Below, in pieces: positions 13,996-19,653 of a stretch of 64,000 nt of DNA (its first letter is position 1; every line of letters begins with the position of its first letter). Both the position numbers and the translations under genes were made by a program. Under the pieces are notes generated by a model. That model did not search any database. It was given only the letters and a program-made list of their open reading frames with translations, and was not told the DNA's origin. Source of the DNA: Bacteroidia bacterium (GTDB lineage Bacteria; Bacteroidota; Bacteroidia; Bacteroidales; GCA-2748055); NCBI GenBank assembly GCA_030639005.1, contig DAOWDN010000057.1:847-64846 (forward strand), given 5' to 3'.

Positions 13996-14931
13996 TTATT
14001 CTTCGCCCTCAAAAAGGATATCCAGGACAACCGGCTCGCCACTCGGGGAACGGTCTGCAGCCGGTGGCTTTTTAAATGCAGGGTAGCTGATTCTGACATC
14101 TGGGTAACCCAGGTGGATCAGCATGGCCACGACAGAAAATATTTTCGGGCCGTGAGGTATTATAACAATTGAATAGTCATTGCGCAGTGGCAGAATGGTA
14201 TTGATCAGACTCTGGTAGATGGCCTGTCCGTTCCTTATGGGATAGGAGATCAGGTTCCTGATGGGAGTGGCATTAATCAGAGCATGGTTGTTGATAAAGG
14301 TAAGCTCTACAAACTTTTTGGCAACCGGAGGATCTGCATAATAGAGATAGAGCAAATCGGGCTCAACTAACTTATAGATGGAATCAGAGATGTTTTTTTC
14401 ATGACTCAGACCCAGTACCAGCGCCTTTTTTTTCTCCACTGAAGTTTTAATATCAGCCTGCAGAAAATGGGTTAATTCTTTTACTTTCCGGGAGCTATCC
14501 AGGCTTACATAATTGGCCATGATATATACTATACGCATCCGAACCACACCCTGAAAATCCTGCTTCTCATCAAACCATTTAAAAAACTGATAATACCAGC
14601 TGGGAGGCATGCTGGTGCAATCGATCATCACACCAATATCCTCCCCGGTCAATGAACTGAGGATTGCCTCAAGATCAGGAACATCGGAGTCTATCGGAAA
14701 AAATTCGAACTCCTTGCTTAAAAAATACTCCCTGTTTTCATCATAGGAGAAATCTTTTAAGCAAGAGTTGGAATCAAGGACCACTTTTCTGCAGGATTGA
14801 TGTTCAAGCAGCCTGGCAACATGGGTGCACCTGTTCTCATAACCGAGAGTGGTAATAAAGACTTCAGCCTTGAAATCAGAAAGTTGAGACGGATCTATAT
14901 GTTCAATAGATGATAGTTCCATAAGGTGCAA
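13996..14931 (-). CDS. Hypothetical protein, family not recognised (AT-rich orphan gene)
   Basis: 311-aa ORF with no signal peptide or TM segment. Two halves look similar: VFITTLGYENR...GVMIDCTSMPP and ALVLGLSHEKN...SIVIIPHGPKIF. Hand counts of two 60-nt lines give about 35-38% GC, against 45-57% in the flanking genes. Confidence 0.7.
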   Translation of the reverse strand: MHLMELSSIEHIDPSQLSDFKAEVFITTLGYENRCTHVARLLEHQSCRKVVLDSNSCLKDFSYDENREYFLSKEFEFFPIDSDVPDLEAILSSLTGEDIGVMIDCTSMPPSWYYQFFKWFDEKQDFQGVVRMRIVYIMANYVSLDSSRKVKELTHFLQADIKTSVEKKKALVLGLSHEKNISDSIYKLVEPDLLYLYYADPPVAKKFVELTFINNHALINATPIRNLISYPIRNGQAIYQSLINTILPLRNDYSIVIIPHGPKIFSVVAMLIHLGYPDVRISYPAFKKPPAADRSPSGEPVVLDILFEGEE

Positions 14932-14982: not shown

Positions 14983-16311
14983 CTAAAGTTTCGGGTTTGT
15001 TGCCGGGATCTCGGTGATGGGATTGCGACTCGCCTCTTCAATGGTGAAAAGATCAATCATGGGCCACTGGTGTACCCTGTTTACTACTCCAAACATCATA
15101 CTGGATACATACCTGTGGATCCTGGAGTGTTTATAAGTACTCGTATTTGTCATTACCACCCAGTTGATTCCGTCGTTCTGCCTGACCATTAGCGCCGATG
15201 AACCGGTCAGATATCCAGTGCGCCACCAGGTACCATACCTGTCACTTCCTCTCCAGCCATAGAGCCCTTTCCCGGCAATTCCGGGATTCGACATATCGGC
15301 AATGGACTTCGCAGAAAGAATGTCAGGTTGTTCAACGAACCCATCAACAGCCGTAAGGAATTTAACAAGTTCAGGAGCGGATGCTACCCATCCTCCGGCA
15401 GGTCCCAGCAGTTCCATGTGGTTGCCCCCATAATAAATAGGAACCTTCTCCCCTGATCCATCCATGGAATACGTAGTCACCTTTCCCGCACTGCTGTGAT
15501 ACCTAACCTCGTTTGGATATTTCTCATGATAGTAGCTTTTCCCAATATGCATATCATGAATGTCGAGGGGCTTCAGGAGATTCATCACCACATAGTCCTG
15601 GTACGGCATACCACTTTTTCTCGCAATGACTGCACCAAGGATTCCATAACCCAGGTTGGAATAACTATATCGGATGCCAGGTCTGTAATTGAGTTTTCGG
15701 GATAAAGTAAACTGCAAAATCTGCTCAAAAGAGGCGGGGGCAGGCACATCCAGTTTCCGGGCAATATAGAGAGGACTGAACATCGGATCGCCAGAATATC
15801 TTGACCAGCCAGCCGTGTGATTCAGCAGGTGTCGAATAGTTATATCTTCAACTCTTTCATCCTTATACAACAGAAAGGTGGAGTCATTAAGGATTCCCCG
15901 GGGTCCGAACACCTGTTCATCCAGATCCAGGATCCCCTCCTCATGCAGCTTCATCACAGCCACCGCCGTAATCAGCTTGGAGACTGAGGCTATGCGGAAC
16001 AGGTGACCTGGTTTTACCTCTTCTCCGGTTTCACTGTTGGCTGTGCCAAATCCTTTGGCATACACCAGGCGCTCATCTTTGGTAACCGCCAGACTTGCAC
16101 CCTGGATCTTCCACCGCTTAATAAATGATTGAACCTGTTTGTCGATATTTTCAGTTCCATCATAGTCCGAATAGTGGTTATCCAGCAAAAGTGAAAAGGG
16201 TACCTCCTCATCATTCAAAAGAGACGGGTATCCCTTATCGGAGAATGTCATGGCAATTTCCCCGAAGAAAAAGAGCAGGACCAGTGTTACAAAAAACATT
16301 ATTCTTTTCAC
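14983..16311 (-). CDS. Serine hydrolase, beta-lactamase class C/esterase family
   Basis: N-terminal signal/anchor, the SxxK motif (ASVSKLITAV) and a YSN motif (YSYSNLGYG). 442 aa. Confidence 0.88.
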   Translation of the reverse strand: MKRIMFFVTLVLLFFFGEIAMTFSDKGYPSLLNDEEVPFSLLLDNHYSDYDGTENIDKQVQSFIKRWKIQGASLAVTKDERLVYAKGFGTANSETGEEVKPGHLFRIASVSKLITAVAVMKLHEEGILDLDEQVFGPRGILNDSTFLLYKDERVEDITIRHLLNHTAGWSRYSGDPMFSPLYIARKLDVPAPASFEQILQFTLSRKLNYRPGIRYSYSNLGYGILGAVIARKSGMPYQDYVVMNLLKPLDIHDMHIGKSYYHEKYPNEVRYHSSAGKVTTYSMDGSGEKVPIYYGGNHMELLGPAGGWVASAPELVKFLTAVDGFVEQPDILSAKSIADMSNPGIAGKGLYGWRGSDRYGTWWRTGYLTGSSALMVRQNDGINWVVMTNTSTYKHSRIHRYVSSMMFGVVNRVHQWPMIDLFTIEEASRNPITEIPATNPKL

Positions 16312-16651
16312 AGATGGATTATTGGTGAAATCAGGATACTTTATTCTATATCTAATTTACAGTAAAAACACGTGTGACAGAAAATGTTCATTATCCGGAT
16401 TTTCGTCCTGATTGTCTCATGAATATATAAACCTGTAAATCAGTTTATTATTTAAGTATTGTCTTGATTGCGAATAGAGCCTAATATTAACATTATCAAA
16501 CCTCTTCGCACAGAATATAATACTTTGATAGAGAGAATTAAGACCATTGATAATTCATTCGATGCAATTGGTCAAAAGAAAATAGCAGTGAAGGGCATTT
16601 TTAGTCAGAAGTCGGAAGAATACAACATATTCTGGCTTAATGAGGGGGTAT

Positions 16652-17075
16652 AAAACACGAATGGGAGCCAAATTTGCATCTGGTTCCCATTCCACTTGTT
16701 AGCTACCGTAGTTGCTAATTCGCGCCAAGCTACGGTTATTATGACTGGTAAACGAGGCCGAAGCCTTGTTAACCCCTTTGCTGACCGACGAATCGATCAA
16801 CTTGCATAATCCTTATCCGAAGACATATCATATGCTCAACTGATTGCAACTTTCACCGCGTTTTCAGGTACTCTACGGTTTCCGTTTTGAATCTCCGTTC
16901 TTGCCTTTGACAGCATTCCCGGTATTCTAGCTCACAGCCCGGTCCGAAAACCGGGAAAACAGCATCAATACCTGTTTAGCTGTTCCCGTGACTCATATTC
17001 ACGCTACCGAGTTGCCCCGGCTGCTAATGATTAAACATTTAAAGAACTGAGTGGCCTTTTATCGCTCACTTGGTA
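16652..17075 (-). ncRNA. Candidate structured ncRNA of about 420 nt, class not recognised
   Basis: There is no ORF >=60 aa on either strand between 16654 and 17282. The minus strand carries TACTTTTG (TAnnTTTG match, 17081-17088) and then many hairpins. One is GCAA-capped (17004-17025), one is C(UUCG)G (16756-16767), and others lie at 16939-16956 and 16954-16988. The 3' end is a 10-bp stem (16660-16691) followed by GUGUUUUA. Confidence 0.4.
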
Positions 17076-17282
17076 ATACCAAAAGTATACGCTTTGTGGC
17101 TTCACTCCAAGAAAAATCTATCGAAGAATTGAACATTGAATCAACATGATTTATTAACAATGAGTTAATACGATGTTAATTGAAATCTACATCTGATTGC
17201 GCATCAAAATTATACAGCCAATAATGAGATAACAGAATTGTTGATATCCCTCCATGAAAACTCTAAACAAGCCTCGGAATAT

Positions 17283-18008
17283 TTAAAATAAACTTCCGGG
17301 AATTTCAAAATTGTATGGTAAGATGATGCCAGGATCGGATGGATCTGCCCCTGCACTCATCAGATTTGGAGCAACAGTATGAGCTTCAAGACCGGAATCA
17401 TCTATAGGAAGAAGGATATGTTTTCGTTTTAATAGTGATATATCTCCGGAGATCCATCCCTGTTCCCTCTCCCTTCTTAAAATTACCGGCATCCTTAGCT
17501 TTGTATTGTGGATAAGCTCCATCATTGGACTTGCATCGGTAGTGATGATGGTAAATGTCTGTGTAATCTCCCCGGTCTCTGAATCCCTCCAGCTGTCGCA
17601 CAGGCCTGCAAAAACAAACGGCTCGCCGCTTTTCAGTCTTATGTACCAGGGTATCTTTCTGCCATTGACCAGCTGCCACTCGAAAAAACCACCAGCAATG
17701 ACCAGGCAGCGTCCCGTGCCCAGAGGTTCTTTGAAAGAGGGCTTTTCGTGCAATGTTTCAGCCCTGGCATTGTAAGTGCCTTTTCTGATCTGCTCGGCCT
17801 GTAACCTGTTGTTCACCCAGGCAGGAATGAGTCCCCACTGTTTCAGTTGCACCCTTGCCGGATCCTCCATGGCTATTACCGGGATCATTGGATTGCTGAA
17901 CGCCCTGTAGAAATAATTGAAATCAAAATCATACAGAGCGGAGGTATTCACCGGAAACCGGGTCTCAATGGCCTTTCTGGTCAGATGTATCTCAATGGTA
18001 AAACACAT
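17283..18008 (-). CDS. SOS response-associated peptidase (SRAP/YedK family, abasic-site sensor)
   Basis: Starts with MC (Cys2 is the nucleophile position). Also has ...YNARAETL... and HNTKLRMPVIL (the HxRMPVIL-type motif). 241 aa. Confidence 0.85.
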   Translation of the reverse strand: MCFTIEIHLTRKAIETRFPVNTSALYDFDFNYFYRAFSNPMIPVIAMEDPARVQLKQWGLIPAWVNNRLQAEQIRKGTYNARAETLHEKPSFKEPLGTGRCLVIAGGFFEWQLVNGRKIPWYIRLKSGEPFVFAGLCDSWRDSETGEITQTFTIITTDASPMMELIHNTKLRMPVILRREREQGWISGDISLLKRKHILLPIDDSGLEAHTVAPNLMSAGADPSDPGIILPYNFEIPGSLF

Positions 18009-18012
18009 GTTA

Positions 18013-18060
18013 GTCGAAAGTCAAAAGTCTAAAGTCGAAAGTTAAAAGTTAAAAGTTAAA
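18013..18060 (+). repeat. Tandem heptamer array (GTCNAAA/GTTAAAA), 7 units
   Basis: The units are GTCGAAA GTCAAAA GTCTAAA GTCGAAA GTTAAAA GTTAAAA GTTAAA. The array starts 4 nt after the SRAP start codon and occupies most of the short divergent SRAP / Lon-N spacer. Confidence 0.9.
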
Positions 18061-18101: not shown

Positions 18102-18704
18102 ATGGAACAGCCACCTGTCATATTACCCTATTTTCCACTGAGTATCTTTCTCTTTCCCGGAGAGGACATCCCTTTGCATATTTTTGAGCCTCGTTACAAG
18201 CAGCTTATTGAAGATGCACGTACACAGGGGATCTCCTTTGCCATCCCGTTTGTGATAGACCAGGATATACAGGAGTTTGGTTGTGAAGTCAGGTTGAAAG
18301 AGGTGGTGGCCGAGAAACCCGGTGGCAGGATGGTGATTGTTGTGGAGTCCATGTCTGTTGTTCAGATCATCAATTATAACAAAAAGCTTGAAGGCAAACT
18401 GTATGCTGGCGGGACCATACGCCGCATGCCCTGCTCTGATCCTGTGGAGAGCGAGGAGCTTCTGGGCCTTATAGAGAACTATATTGATCAGTTTGATAAA
18501 GAATTTCTAACCATGGGTGCAGAGAGTGTGATTACTCGTCAGGAAGTGATGATTGCCCTGAACCTGACTTCCGATGATAAGTACAAGTTTATCTGCATGC
18601 CCGATGCAGTACAGAAAGAGGGTTACCTGGCAGGACAGCTTCGTTACCTGGGAATGATCAGGAAACAGGAGACTTTGCTGGGTAATGACTTCGGGTTAAA
18701 TTAA
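18102..18704 (+). CDS. LON peptidase substrate-binding (Lon N-terminal) domain protein
   Basis: LPYFPLSIFLFPGEDIPLHIFEPRYKQLIED is the classical Lon-N start. ATG 18102 is preferred over the listed TTG 18066. There is no ATPase or protease domain. Confidence 0.8.
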   Translation: MEQPPVILPYFPLSIFLFPGEDIPLHIFEPRYKQLIEDARTQGISFAIPFVIDQDIQEFGCEVRLKEVVAEKPGGRMVIVVESMSVVQIINYNKKLEGKLYAGGTIRRMPCSDPVESEELLGLIENYIDQFDKEFLTMGAESVITRQEVMIALNLTSDDKYKFICMPDAVQKEGYLAGQLRYLGMIRKQETLLGNDFGLN

Positions 18705-19516
18705 GACCCGCTTCCCTTCCCGGTCATATTCAGTTTGATACGGTCCAGGTCCTGCTTAAGCCCTGCTACAGTCCGGACAAGCTGGTTTTCCGGAATTACC
18801 GGTTCGGGAATTTCGTGACTGATAAAATGTACAAACTTCCAGATCTCCCTGATCTCATTTACATTAATCTCATAAGGTTCATATATCGGATTCAGGGAGT
18901 AAAGGATCACCTTCCCCTCCTTTTCAATCTGATTTTCAATGATCTTGAAAACAATGCCATTGTCGAGGGTCAGAACCACGCATGCCTCCCCGGTCTTCAA
19001 CTCTTTCCAGTCCAGTACATATTCACCTGTAACCCATGCTTTTTCCGGGATTGGGAGCATAGAGTCACCCTGTAGCTGGAAGGTCCTGTATTTCTTCTCT
19101 TCTGAAAGAAAAGGGAGCCGGAACACCTGCAATTCACTGATGTATTCAGGATCAGAGAACCCATTGGTATAACCCGCCTGGGCTTTTACAGGAACCAGCT
19201 CTATATTTTCCTGGTTGTCGGTATTTACTGTGGAAGCGAGCACCCTGAGGTTACCACCCCTGAGGAACACATCCTCCCCGTGTTCCAGCTGTCTCAGCTG
19301 GGTTTCACTCAACTTCCCGAGGTCCACTTTCAGGATCGTATCCACCGAAATCTTATAATAGGCCGAAAAGAGGAGGAGAATGTCCAGTCCGGGCTGCGCT
19401 ACCCTGTTTTCATAACCACTCAATGTGGAGCGCTTCATTTTGAGCTGTTCTGCCACTTCATCCTGCGTGAGGTTTTTACGCTTTCTCAGCAGTTTAATGT
19501 TTGAATCAAAATACAT
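18701..19516 (-). CDS. XRE-family HTH + S24 peptidase repressor (LexA-like / CI-like)
   Basis: N-terminal HTH (LTQDEVAEQLKMKRSTLSGYENR). A candidate Ala-Gly cleavage site lies in VKAQAGY. The S24 Ser motif is GDSMLP, with a downstream Lys (IVFKII). It is divergent from dinB-dnaE2. Confidence 0.85.
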   Translation of the reverse strand: MYFDSNIKLLRKRKNLTQDEVAEQLKMKRSTLSGYENRVAQPGLDILLLFSAYYKISVDTILKVDLGKLSETQLRQLEHGEDVFLRGGNLRVLASTVNTDNQENIELVPVKAQAGYTNGFSDPEYISELQVFRLPFLSEEKKYRTFQLQGDSMLPIPEKAWVTGEYVLDWKELKTGEACVVLTLDNGIVFKIIENQIEKEGKVILYSLNPIYEPYEINVNEIREIWKFVHFISHEIPEPVIPENQLVRTVAGLKQDLDRIKLNMTGKGSGS

Positions 19517-19553: not shown

Positions 19554-19584
19554 TATGATTATATTGTAATCATAATAATGATTA
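19554..19584. promoter_or_regulatory. Candidate operator: three ATGATTA half-sites in alternating orientation
   Basis: TATGATTA (19554-19561) and TAATCATA (19567-19574) form a perfect 8-bp inverted repeat with a 5-nt spacer. A third ATGATTA lies at 19578-19584. The site is 38-68 nt upstream of the repressor start codon. Confidence 0.4.
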
Positions 19585-19653
19585 ATATCTAATCAAAGAT
19601 AAAAAAAGTTAATAAGCTGGCAAGTTAATGGGTTATTTTTTTCACTAACACAT

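Follow-up and report, generated by a model that had tools for sequence, protein, structure and literature searches.

The question raised by this locus is what occupies the 971-nt gap (16312-17282) that separates the SRAP gene from the gene for a beta-lactamase-family serine hydrolase in a stretch of 64,000 nucleotides from a Bacteroidia bacterium (contig DAOWDN010000057.1; the whole stretch is called the window below). The only open reading frame (ORF) of at least 60 aa in the gap is one of 61 aa on the plus strand (16468-16653). An earlier note on this DNA, made from the letters alone, had reported no such ORF in 16654-17282, which was confirmed, the ORF-poor gap being in fact larger, and had proposed a folded minus-strand RNA of about 0.4 kb. 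We conclude with high confidence that the gap contains a real, independently bounded structured RNA gene, a stand-alone noncoding RNA (ncRNA) gene of ~423 nt on the minus strand, whose family is absent from Rfam 15 (Table 1). The element is single-copy in the window and its G+C content is 0.41-0.50 as compared with 0.27-0.34 in the flanks, which agrees with the coding-like GC of the centre and the AT-rich flanks described earlier.

A comparison with relatives had been proposed in the earlier note as a check. The genome sample was obtained by a protein scan with SRAP, keeping one genome per species, which gave 30 loci (SRAP 44-85% identical), all from metagenome-assembled genomes of uncultured Bacteroidia, Bacteroidales or Bacteroidota. 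In 29 of these 30 loci the DNA downstream of SRAP matched the window at 77-87% nucleotide identity over ~540 nt. For the metagenome sample, contigs were searched for the exact invariant 20-mer AGCGATAAAAGGCCACTCAG, giving 47 additional loci, and the whole element was present in 47/47; the same 20-mer had no match in viral contigs. After deduplication there were 63 distinct full-length copies, which together with a 64th (L078, found via a protein look-up) made up a set of 64 sequences. In the MAFFT alignment the conserved block is sharply bounded at 17182-16645, with identities of 0.6-1.0 inside and 0.14-0.44 on either side, and the spacers flanking the RNA were alignable in only one or two loci. 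On average the RNA shares 84.2% of its nucleotides with the window, the same value as for dinB (84.2%), the best-conserved neighbour, the other neighbours being at 69-79%. The span given for the element in the earlier note is real, and the conserved unit is bigger, adding about 100 nt with promoter and upstream sites up to 17182. Two copies, those of L052 and L078, come from a divergent subgroup and are only 60-61% identical to the window.

The test of stability on a single sequence says little in this case, because the plus strand (z = -3.9 relative to shuffles) scores about equally to the minus strand (z = -3.5). Covariation was examined, as the earlier note had also suggested, in an alignment of 28 sequences (A1; 444 columns, mean column identity 87%). 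RNAalifold predicted 103 pairs for it, and compensatory double changes were seen at 30 of these. When the RNAalifold structure and an added loop-loop helix were combined into a model of 110 pairs, 98.5% of the cells were paired, as compared with 95.2% after shuffling of the 3' partners and 27-42% after sliding the partners by 1-3 columns. The number of pairs with double changes separated the model clearly from the controls, with 30 observed versus 12.8±2.0 in the shuffles (0 of 500 reached 30) and 5-10 in the slid versions. The shuffle control keeps the phylogenetic signal, for which sliding and the divergent subgroup compensate only partly. In the 64 sequences, double changes were present, once or more, at 51/110 pairs, and the paired cells amounted to 97.8%. 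In L052 and L078, 55-56 pairs were unchanged and 16-17 were kept by two-sided changes, and most of the broken pairs fall in inserted or heavily substituted segments where the column alignment is unreliable. A blind search for helices by pairing frequency was too noisy to be of use, since tolerance of G·U gave hundreds of 4-bp runs.

The pairing also determines the strand. Read as minus strand 98.5% of the cells are paired, versus 88.9% when read as plus strand, and given that G·U cells (316) far outnumber A·C cells (18) the transcript is the minus strand. The indels in A1 are of 1-2 nt and placed in loops, and the five short ORFs of the region gave no Pfam match at E<=1. Given the lack of an ORF and of a Pfam match, the loop-sited indels and the covariation, the element is not a decayed gene, as the earlier note had argued. 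The conserved block, the covariation and the G·U versus A·C counts demonstrate that the RNA exists, that it is folded and that its fold is under selective constraint.

Table 1. Coordinates of the RNA, its predicted structural parts, the associated sites and the neighbouring genes in the window
Feature	Position	Strand	Remarks
ncRNA gene	16651..17074	minus	~423 nt, stand-alone; ends placed from sequence signals
Closing helix P1	17068..17073 (CCAAGU, positions 6-11) and 16725..16730 (GCUUGG, 349-354)	minus	encloses ~340 nt
5' segment CAAGUGAGCGAUAAAAGGCCACUCAGUUCUUU	17041..17072	minus	32 nt, invariant in the 28 A1 sequences (columns 7-38), L052 and L078
GCAA-tetraloop hairpin	17003..17024	minus	G-C to A-U at one pair in 9/28; more double changes in helix
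GAACAGC/GCUGUUU hairpin	16985-16957	minus	present in sequence; loop carries CAGGUAU
Kissing interaction, 7 bp	16968..16974 (CAGGUAU, 105-111) and 16865..16871 (GUACCUG, 208-214)	minus	predicted loop-loop contact
Hairpin CCCGGU-UUUCGG-ACCGGG	16938..16955	minus	cap UUCG-type in most relatives
9-bp hairpin GUUGAUCGA-UUCG-UCGGUCAGC	16780..16801	minus	3 double-change pairs; 99.6% paired
Extended hairpin, C(UUCG)G cap	16744..16776	minus	apical GGC(UUCG)GCC at 16765-16756; lower stem from single-sequence fold
3'-domain hairpin UUAGC...GCUAA	16699..16718	minus	loop CUACGGU nearly invariant (one CUUCGGU in A1)
Two-tier GCAA-capped hairpin, then GUGUUUUA	16692-16659, then 16658-16651	minus	presumed intrinsic terminator
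Bacteroidetes-type promoter	17080..17111	minus	CTTG-N20-TACTTTTG
Conserved upstream block	17112..17182	minus	about -38 to -108 from presumed start; identity 0.69-0.88
Palindrome TTAACA-N14-TGTTAA	17179-17154	minus	contains ATTAAC-N5-GTTAAT (17169-17153), about -79 to -95
Direct repeat TGTTGA-N5-TGTTCA	17146-17130	minus	11-bp periodicity
SRAP gene	17283-18008	minus	Pfam SRAP, 5.8e-48
Beta-lactamase-family serine hydrolase gene	14983-16311	minus	
311-aa ORF	13996-14931	minus	position conserved in all loci; just 33-80% identical
lexA-like gene	18701-19516		HTH_3 and Peptidase_S24
LexA-type box TGATTA-N5-TAATCA, two perfect copies	19556-19572, 19579-19595		lexA-dinB spacer; invariant in 27 aligned loci

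The hairpins listed in the earlier note were all recovered, several of them with coordinates shifted by 1-2 nt. In the numbering used for the RNA, position 1 is 17078 and the window coordinate is 17079 minus the position. The closing helix P1 is 100% paired, its outer C-G pair occurring also as U-G and U-A and its inner U·G pair as U-A. The invariant 5' segment is partly paired, in P1 and in the ACUCAGUUC helix, and partly single-stranded (GAGCGAUAAAAGGCC). Inside P1, ACUCAGUUC pairs with GAAU-A-UGAGU, flanking the hairpin with the GCAA tetraloop, and the next hairpin has a 15-nt loop that is almost invariant. The CAGGUAU in this loop can pair with the GUACCUG loop of a multi-branched domain that lies after the UUCG-type hairpin at 16938..16955. 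The resulting kissing helix is 100% paired in the 28 sequences and, among the 64, one of its pairs has changed from G-C to A-U in four sequences and another from A-U to G·U (L052) and to G-C (L078), and we regard the predicted loop-loop helix as a supported tertiary contact.

The hairpin at 16938..16955 shows G-C to A-U replacements at two pairs, in 12/28 and in 3 sequences respectively, and its copies in L052 and L078 are lengthened by a 12-nt insertion. Three further UUCG-capped hairpins come after the multi-branched domain. The 9-bp hairpin among the conserved elements reads GCGCACCGG...CCGGUGUC in L052 and L078, where an equivalent helix is possible by eye and the column count gives 5/9 pairs as broken. 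In the extended hairpin the apical stem has an A-U to G-C change in 10/28 sequences. The UUCG-capped hairpins are followed by the conserved single strand GUCAUAAUAAC and by the 3' strand of P1, after which come a short helix and the UUAGC hairpin; in the latter C-G is replaced by A-U in 7/28 sequences, and compensatory changes are found at 4 or 5 of its 7 pairs in L052 and L078. In total there are about a dozen helices, with four UUCG-type caps and two GCAA caps. A second pseudoknot, ACCGUAG/CUACGGU, was considered and rejected, since column 356 changes from C to A in 10/28 sequences of A1 while the partner G is unchanged.

To place the RNA among known classes the window was scanned with the 4227 models of Rfam 15, which include OLE, GOLLD, ROOL, HEARO, raiA, 6S, SRP, tmRNA, RNase P, group I/II introns and riboswitches. 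The sole match above a gathering threshold was RNase P RNA class A (RF00010, 34265-34595, minus strand, 186 bits, full length), which the earlier note had correctly located at 34.3 kb. No family was matched in the region of the new RNA; for 16350-17350 at E<=10 there were only three chance-level matches, with 14-16 bits versus cut-offs of 46-382, one of them merely a UUCG hairpin. Neither a tRNA nor a tmRNA was found in the window by ARAGORN, and RF00023 gave no match there. The statements that the element is not RNase P RNA, tmRNA, SRP RNA or 6S RNA and that its class is unrecognised were thus upheld. No match was obtained in plasmid and phage collections (blastn), and full-text literature searches found no description of such an RNA.

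The new RNA is similar to RNase P RNA class A in size, in having a terminal closing helix and UUCG- and GNRA-capped hairpins, and in its long-range loop contact, but it has no RF00010 match and the universally conserved P4 sequences were not recognised in it. Bacteroidetes tmRNAs, at ~400 nt, are of similar length, and tmRNA is likewise encoded by a strongly conserved, single-copy, stand-alone gene; unlike tmRNA, the new RNA has no tRNA-like acceptor, T-arm, CCA end or protein-conserved tag frame. Bacteroidales-1 and the other Bacteroidetes motifs in Rfam are from the same phylum, were also discovered by comparative genomics and are of unknown function. These motifs are smaller and are found in other contexts (Bacteroidales-1 downstream of rplT), and none of them matched the region in Rfam 15 at E<=10.

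The RNA appears to occur in one group of uncultured sediment Bacteroidales. It was not found by nhmmer (E<=10) in four outgroup Bacteroidales loci (L027 and L082-L084), and no LexA or DinB genes were called near SRAP in these loci. Protein searches with SRAP were saturated by this clade; L027 came from the scan that gave the 30 loci, and L082-L084 were reached by using an outgroup SRAP as query. The SRAP of L027 is 44% identical to that of the window, and those of L082-L084 were found via, and are 55-64% identical to, that of L027.

Bacteroidetes sigma-A promoters have a -33 box TTTG and a -7 box TAnnTTTG, spaced about 19-21 nt. Such a pattern precedes the RNA, with CTTG (17111-17108; TTTG in most relatives) as the -33 box and TACTTTTG, which fits TAnnTTTG, as the -7 box; the earlier note had recognised the latter, which is located at 17087-17080 and not at 17081-17088. 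Both boxes are fixed in the alignment, while the 20-nt spacer is freely variable. The pattern is rare in the window, with 8 matches on the two strands versus 1.4±1.3 in shuffles, and another of these matches is located directly upstream of the lexA-like gene. The earlier suggestion of a dedicated promoter was supported. Given the placement of the promoter, transcription would start near 17074, one base ahead of the closing helix. In the conserved block further upstream variation is restricted to the gaps between three motif groups, of which the palindrome and the direct repeat are presumed regulator-binding sites and the third is a AATTCTTC tail.

At the other end of the element, the 3' hairpin shows almost no variation, loop included, among the 28 sequences, and conservation drops from 0.84 to 0.16 directly past it. 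In L052 and L078 two pairs of its upper stem were scored as broken, and the closing pair shows a compensatory change from G-C to A-U. The 3' end of the transcript is placed at about 16651 based on this hairpin, the U-run and the abrupt stop of conservation.

With respect to function, we consider it reasonably probable that this is an uncatalogued large structured ncRNA of ~423 nt, made from the minus strand as its own transcription unit and acting in trans through its fold, probably together with a protein. It would be transcribed alone from the sigma-A-type promoter (-33 TTTG, -7 TAnnTTTG), with the upstream palindrome and direct repeat serving as regulator sites, and transcription would stop at the conserved hairpin and its short U-run. 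The 5' end is joined to position ~350 by the long-range helix that closes the body of the molecule, leaving the small hairpin and the terminator hairpin as a 3' domain. The RNA would then act in trans via its three-dimensional fold, most likely as the core or scaffold of a ribonucleoprotein, and the invariant unpaired GAGCGAUAAAAGGCC and GUCAUAAUAAC and the CUACGGU loop could be the contact surfaces. Action through the fold is suggested by the size, by the constraint on the whole molecule, by the stable tetraloop caps and the loop-loop contact and by the unpaired stretches that do not vary, and a base-pairing small RNA or a leader of the next gene is less likely.

Several points weigh against this interpretation. 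The 5' and 3' ends of the transcript were deduced from the sequence signals described above, and the protein partner is putative. The 3' hairpin was not flagged by a generic terminator scan; what the earlier note had called a clean terminator is a conserved 3' hairpin with a bulged, two-tier stem and a short, interrupted U-run (GUGUUUUA), and read-through from the RNA into the beta-lactamase-family gene is possible. In the SRAP-RNA interval no strong hairpin is evident, and transcripts of SRAP may enter the RNA. Since the gene order is identical in the loci (see below), all copies represent one lineage in which adjacency to SRAP is inseparable from inherited synteny. Furthermore, homologues were collected via near relatives of SRAP and an exact 20-mer, which may have missed copies that are more divergent or more widely distributed.

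Among the alternatives, one that we regard as possible although unlikely is that the fold itself is the working part, either of a ribozyme or of a self-assembling RNA-only particle resembling OLE, ROOL or GOLLD. Traits typical of such RNAs are its size and helix number, unpaired nucleotides that are invariant, two GNRA and four UUCG caps and the loop-loop contact. The new RNA also shares with OLE, ROOL, GOLLD and raiA a length of hundreds of nucleotides, many helices, broad nucleotide conservation with covariation, a narrow host group and neighbours that do not reveal the function. It differs from them in that it matches none of their Rfam models at E<=10 and in that its hosts are Bacteroidales and not Bacillota or phages of Bacillota. 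At 423 nt it does not reach the length of OLE, ROOL and GOLLD, and its gene context is not one of tRNA, phage or membrane-protein genes. A particle would be in line with the homo-oligomeric complexes reported for GOLLD, ROOL and OLE (PMC12286853), but no self-complementary loop suggestive of a dimer was noticed. For a ribozyme, neither a substrate nor a cleavage site can be proposed, and similarity to any ribozyme or ornate RNA model of Rfam 15 is lacking.

Other alternatives depend on the neighbourhood of the RNA. The order of genes is a 986-aa (dnaE2-like) ORF and dinB on one strand, the lexA-like gene, a LON-domain gene on the opposite strand, SRAP, the RNA, the beta-lactamase-family gene, the 311-aa ORF (no Pfam family, only a sub-threshold DUF4916 match with E = 0.017) and an E2 acyltransferase gene, and every locus of sufficient length has this same order. 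The distance from SRAP to the RNA downstream of it is 100-255 nt in all loci. The two TGATTA-N5-TAATCA boxes, derived from the alignment of the lexA-dinB spacer, are probably the operator of the non-canonical LexA of this clade, and one of them shares bases with the -7 box in the promoter of the lexA-like gene (19624-19594, minus strand). The non-canonical LexA motif CTAA-N5-TTAG of Bacteroidetes has the same dyad-N5-dyad layout (PMC8565304). When the window was scanned for TGATTA-N5-TAATCA with up to 2 mismatches none was found near the RNA or SRAP, and these two are thus not visibly under that repressor. The ATTAAC-N5-GTTAAT in the palindrome upstream of the RNA resembles the LexA-type box in its dyad-N5-dyad layout, and differs from it in sequence. 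Palindromes of the type TTAACA-N14-16-TGTT(T)AA occur at two sites in the 64 kb, one upstream of the RNA and the other (TTAACA-N15/16-TGTTTAA, 18084-18056) in the spacer between the LON-domain gene and SRAP, where it is conserved and overlaps the annotated start of the LON-domain ORF. The shared type of palindrome may be a weak hint of co-regulation of the RNA and the SRAP region, although the spacings differ.

Given the fixed setting of SOS genes and this shared palindrome, one could imagine that the RNA represents a new class of large functional RNA, a ribozyme or ribonucleoprotein core, that serves in DNA damage or at stalled replication; we regard this as speculative and improbable, and if true it would be the founding example of a large functional RNA class in Bacteroidota. 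Slightly more doubtful is a link of the RNA to SRAP and the DNA-damage response in a general sense, for example by being made from or with the SRAP transcript or as a damage-induced regulatory RNA under joint control with SRAP and the LON-domain gene. In favour of such a link are the constant proximity to SRAP, the nearby lexA-like, dinB and 986-aa (dnaE2-like) genes and the two palindromes, both of them conserved. However, in a single syntenic lineage the adjacency could just be inherited, the LexA-type box is confined to the lexA-dinB spacer, the two palindromes are spaced differently, and the RNA has its own promoter. In addition, SRAP genes occur without the RNA in the outgroup.

The outgroup also bears on the relation to the hydrolase gene. 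In two of these loci (L083, 3830-5723, and L084, 3730-5726), and in a fifth place known by gene order only, the beta-lactamase-family gene immediately precedes SRAP in the same orientation, the two being 2-46 nt apart. The pairing of the two genes is thus older than the place of the RNA between them. Nothing RNA-like was seen in the spacer upstream of the outgroup hydrolase genes. Within the clade, the hydrolase gene begins about 340 nt past the RNA (276-462 nt in relatives). The RNA is always upstream of this gene and co-oriented with it, and the RNA might be its long cis-acting leader, with the 3' hairpin as a conditional terminator. The weak U-run, which may give partial termination, and the lack of a canonical TTTG/TAnnTTTG promoter between the hairpin and the gene are compatible with this idea, which we nevertheless find quite improbable. 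The distance to the gene start is considerable and the first ~65 nt past the hairpin are unconserved and rich in indels, the 3' hairpin hardly varies, even in its loop, 423 nt is well above the size of known riboswitch aptamers, and the orthologous hydrolase gene of the outgroup has no such RNA upstream. Nor did inspection of the RNA by eye reveal, ahead of the hairpin, a segment similar to its 3' arm (e.g. CCCAUU), so that an anti-terminator pairing is not apparent, no dedicated computation of alternative folds having been made.

It is very unlikely that the RNA is a trans-acting base-pairing small RNA in which a conserved loop pairs with target mRNAs; its own promoter and terminator and its several invariant unpaired stretches would fit, but it is much larger and structurally far more constrained than known RNAs of this type and its conservation spans the whole molecule and not a single seed. 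That there is no RNA at all and the element is either a protein gene in decay or a sequence conserved as DNA, as the roughly equal folding of the plus strand in a single sequence might suggest, can practically be dismissed, given that compensatory changes preserve the helices, that the excess of G·U over A·C is sensible only for a minus-strand transcript and that there is no ORF, Pfam match or frame-preserving pattern of indels.

Large, intricately folded and strongly conserved bacterial RNAs are rare, with only about a dozen known classes, and nearly all those whose function has been solved are ribozymes or cores of important ribonucleoproteins. The functions of OLE, ROOL, GOLLD and raiA are unsolved and actively researched. 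To our knowledge Bacteroidota lack Hfq and ProQ, and their RNA biology is poorly charted. Based on Rfam 15 and the literature searches, no RNA of comparable size has been described for Bacteroidota. The 64 sequences, the structure backed by covariation with a predicted tertiary contact and the promoter elements provide a basis for a covariance model, structure probing, cryo-EM and searches of metatranscriptomes.

Between the RNA and the hydrolase gene there is another conserved block of ~85 nt (16500-16585), located 65-150 nt downstream of the 3' hairpin and within the 61-aa plus-strand ORF, with the invariant plus-strand words CTCTTCGCA, ACTTTG and TCAAAAG. This block showed no codon periodicity, nor did either of its strands give a consensus RNA fold. 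The 61-aa ORF (16468-16653) was rejected as a gene because of this lack of codon periodicity and because its frame and ends are inconsistent across the loci. The block may be a regulatory region of the beta-lactamase-family gene.

On the other side of SRAP, tandem repeats of ~6-9 nt are located directly upstream of its start codon (18010-18060), with units of AAAGTC/AAAAGTT in the window and CAAACTTTA in L030. Like repeats are present in some of the lexA-dinB spacers, and in the alignments (including L030 and L025) both the unit sequence and the copy number vary among the genomes.

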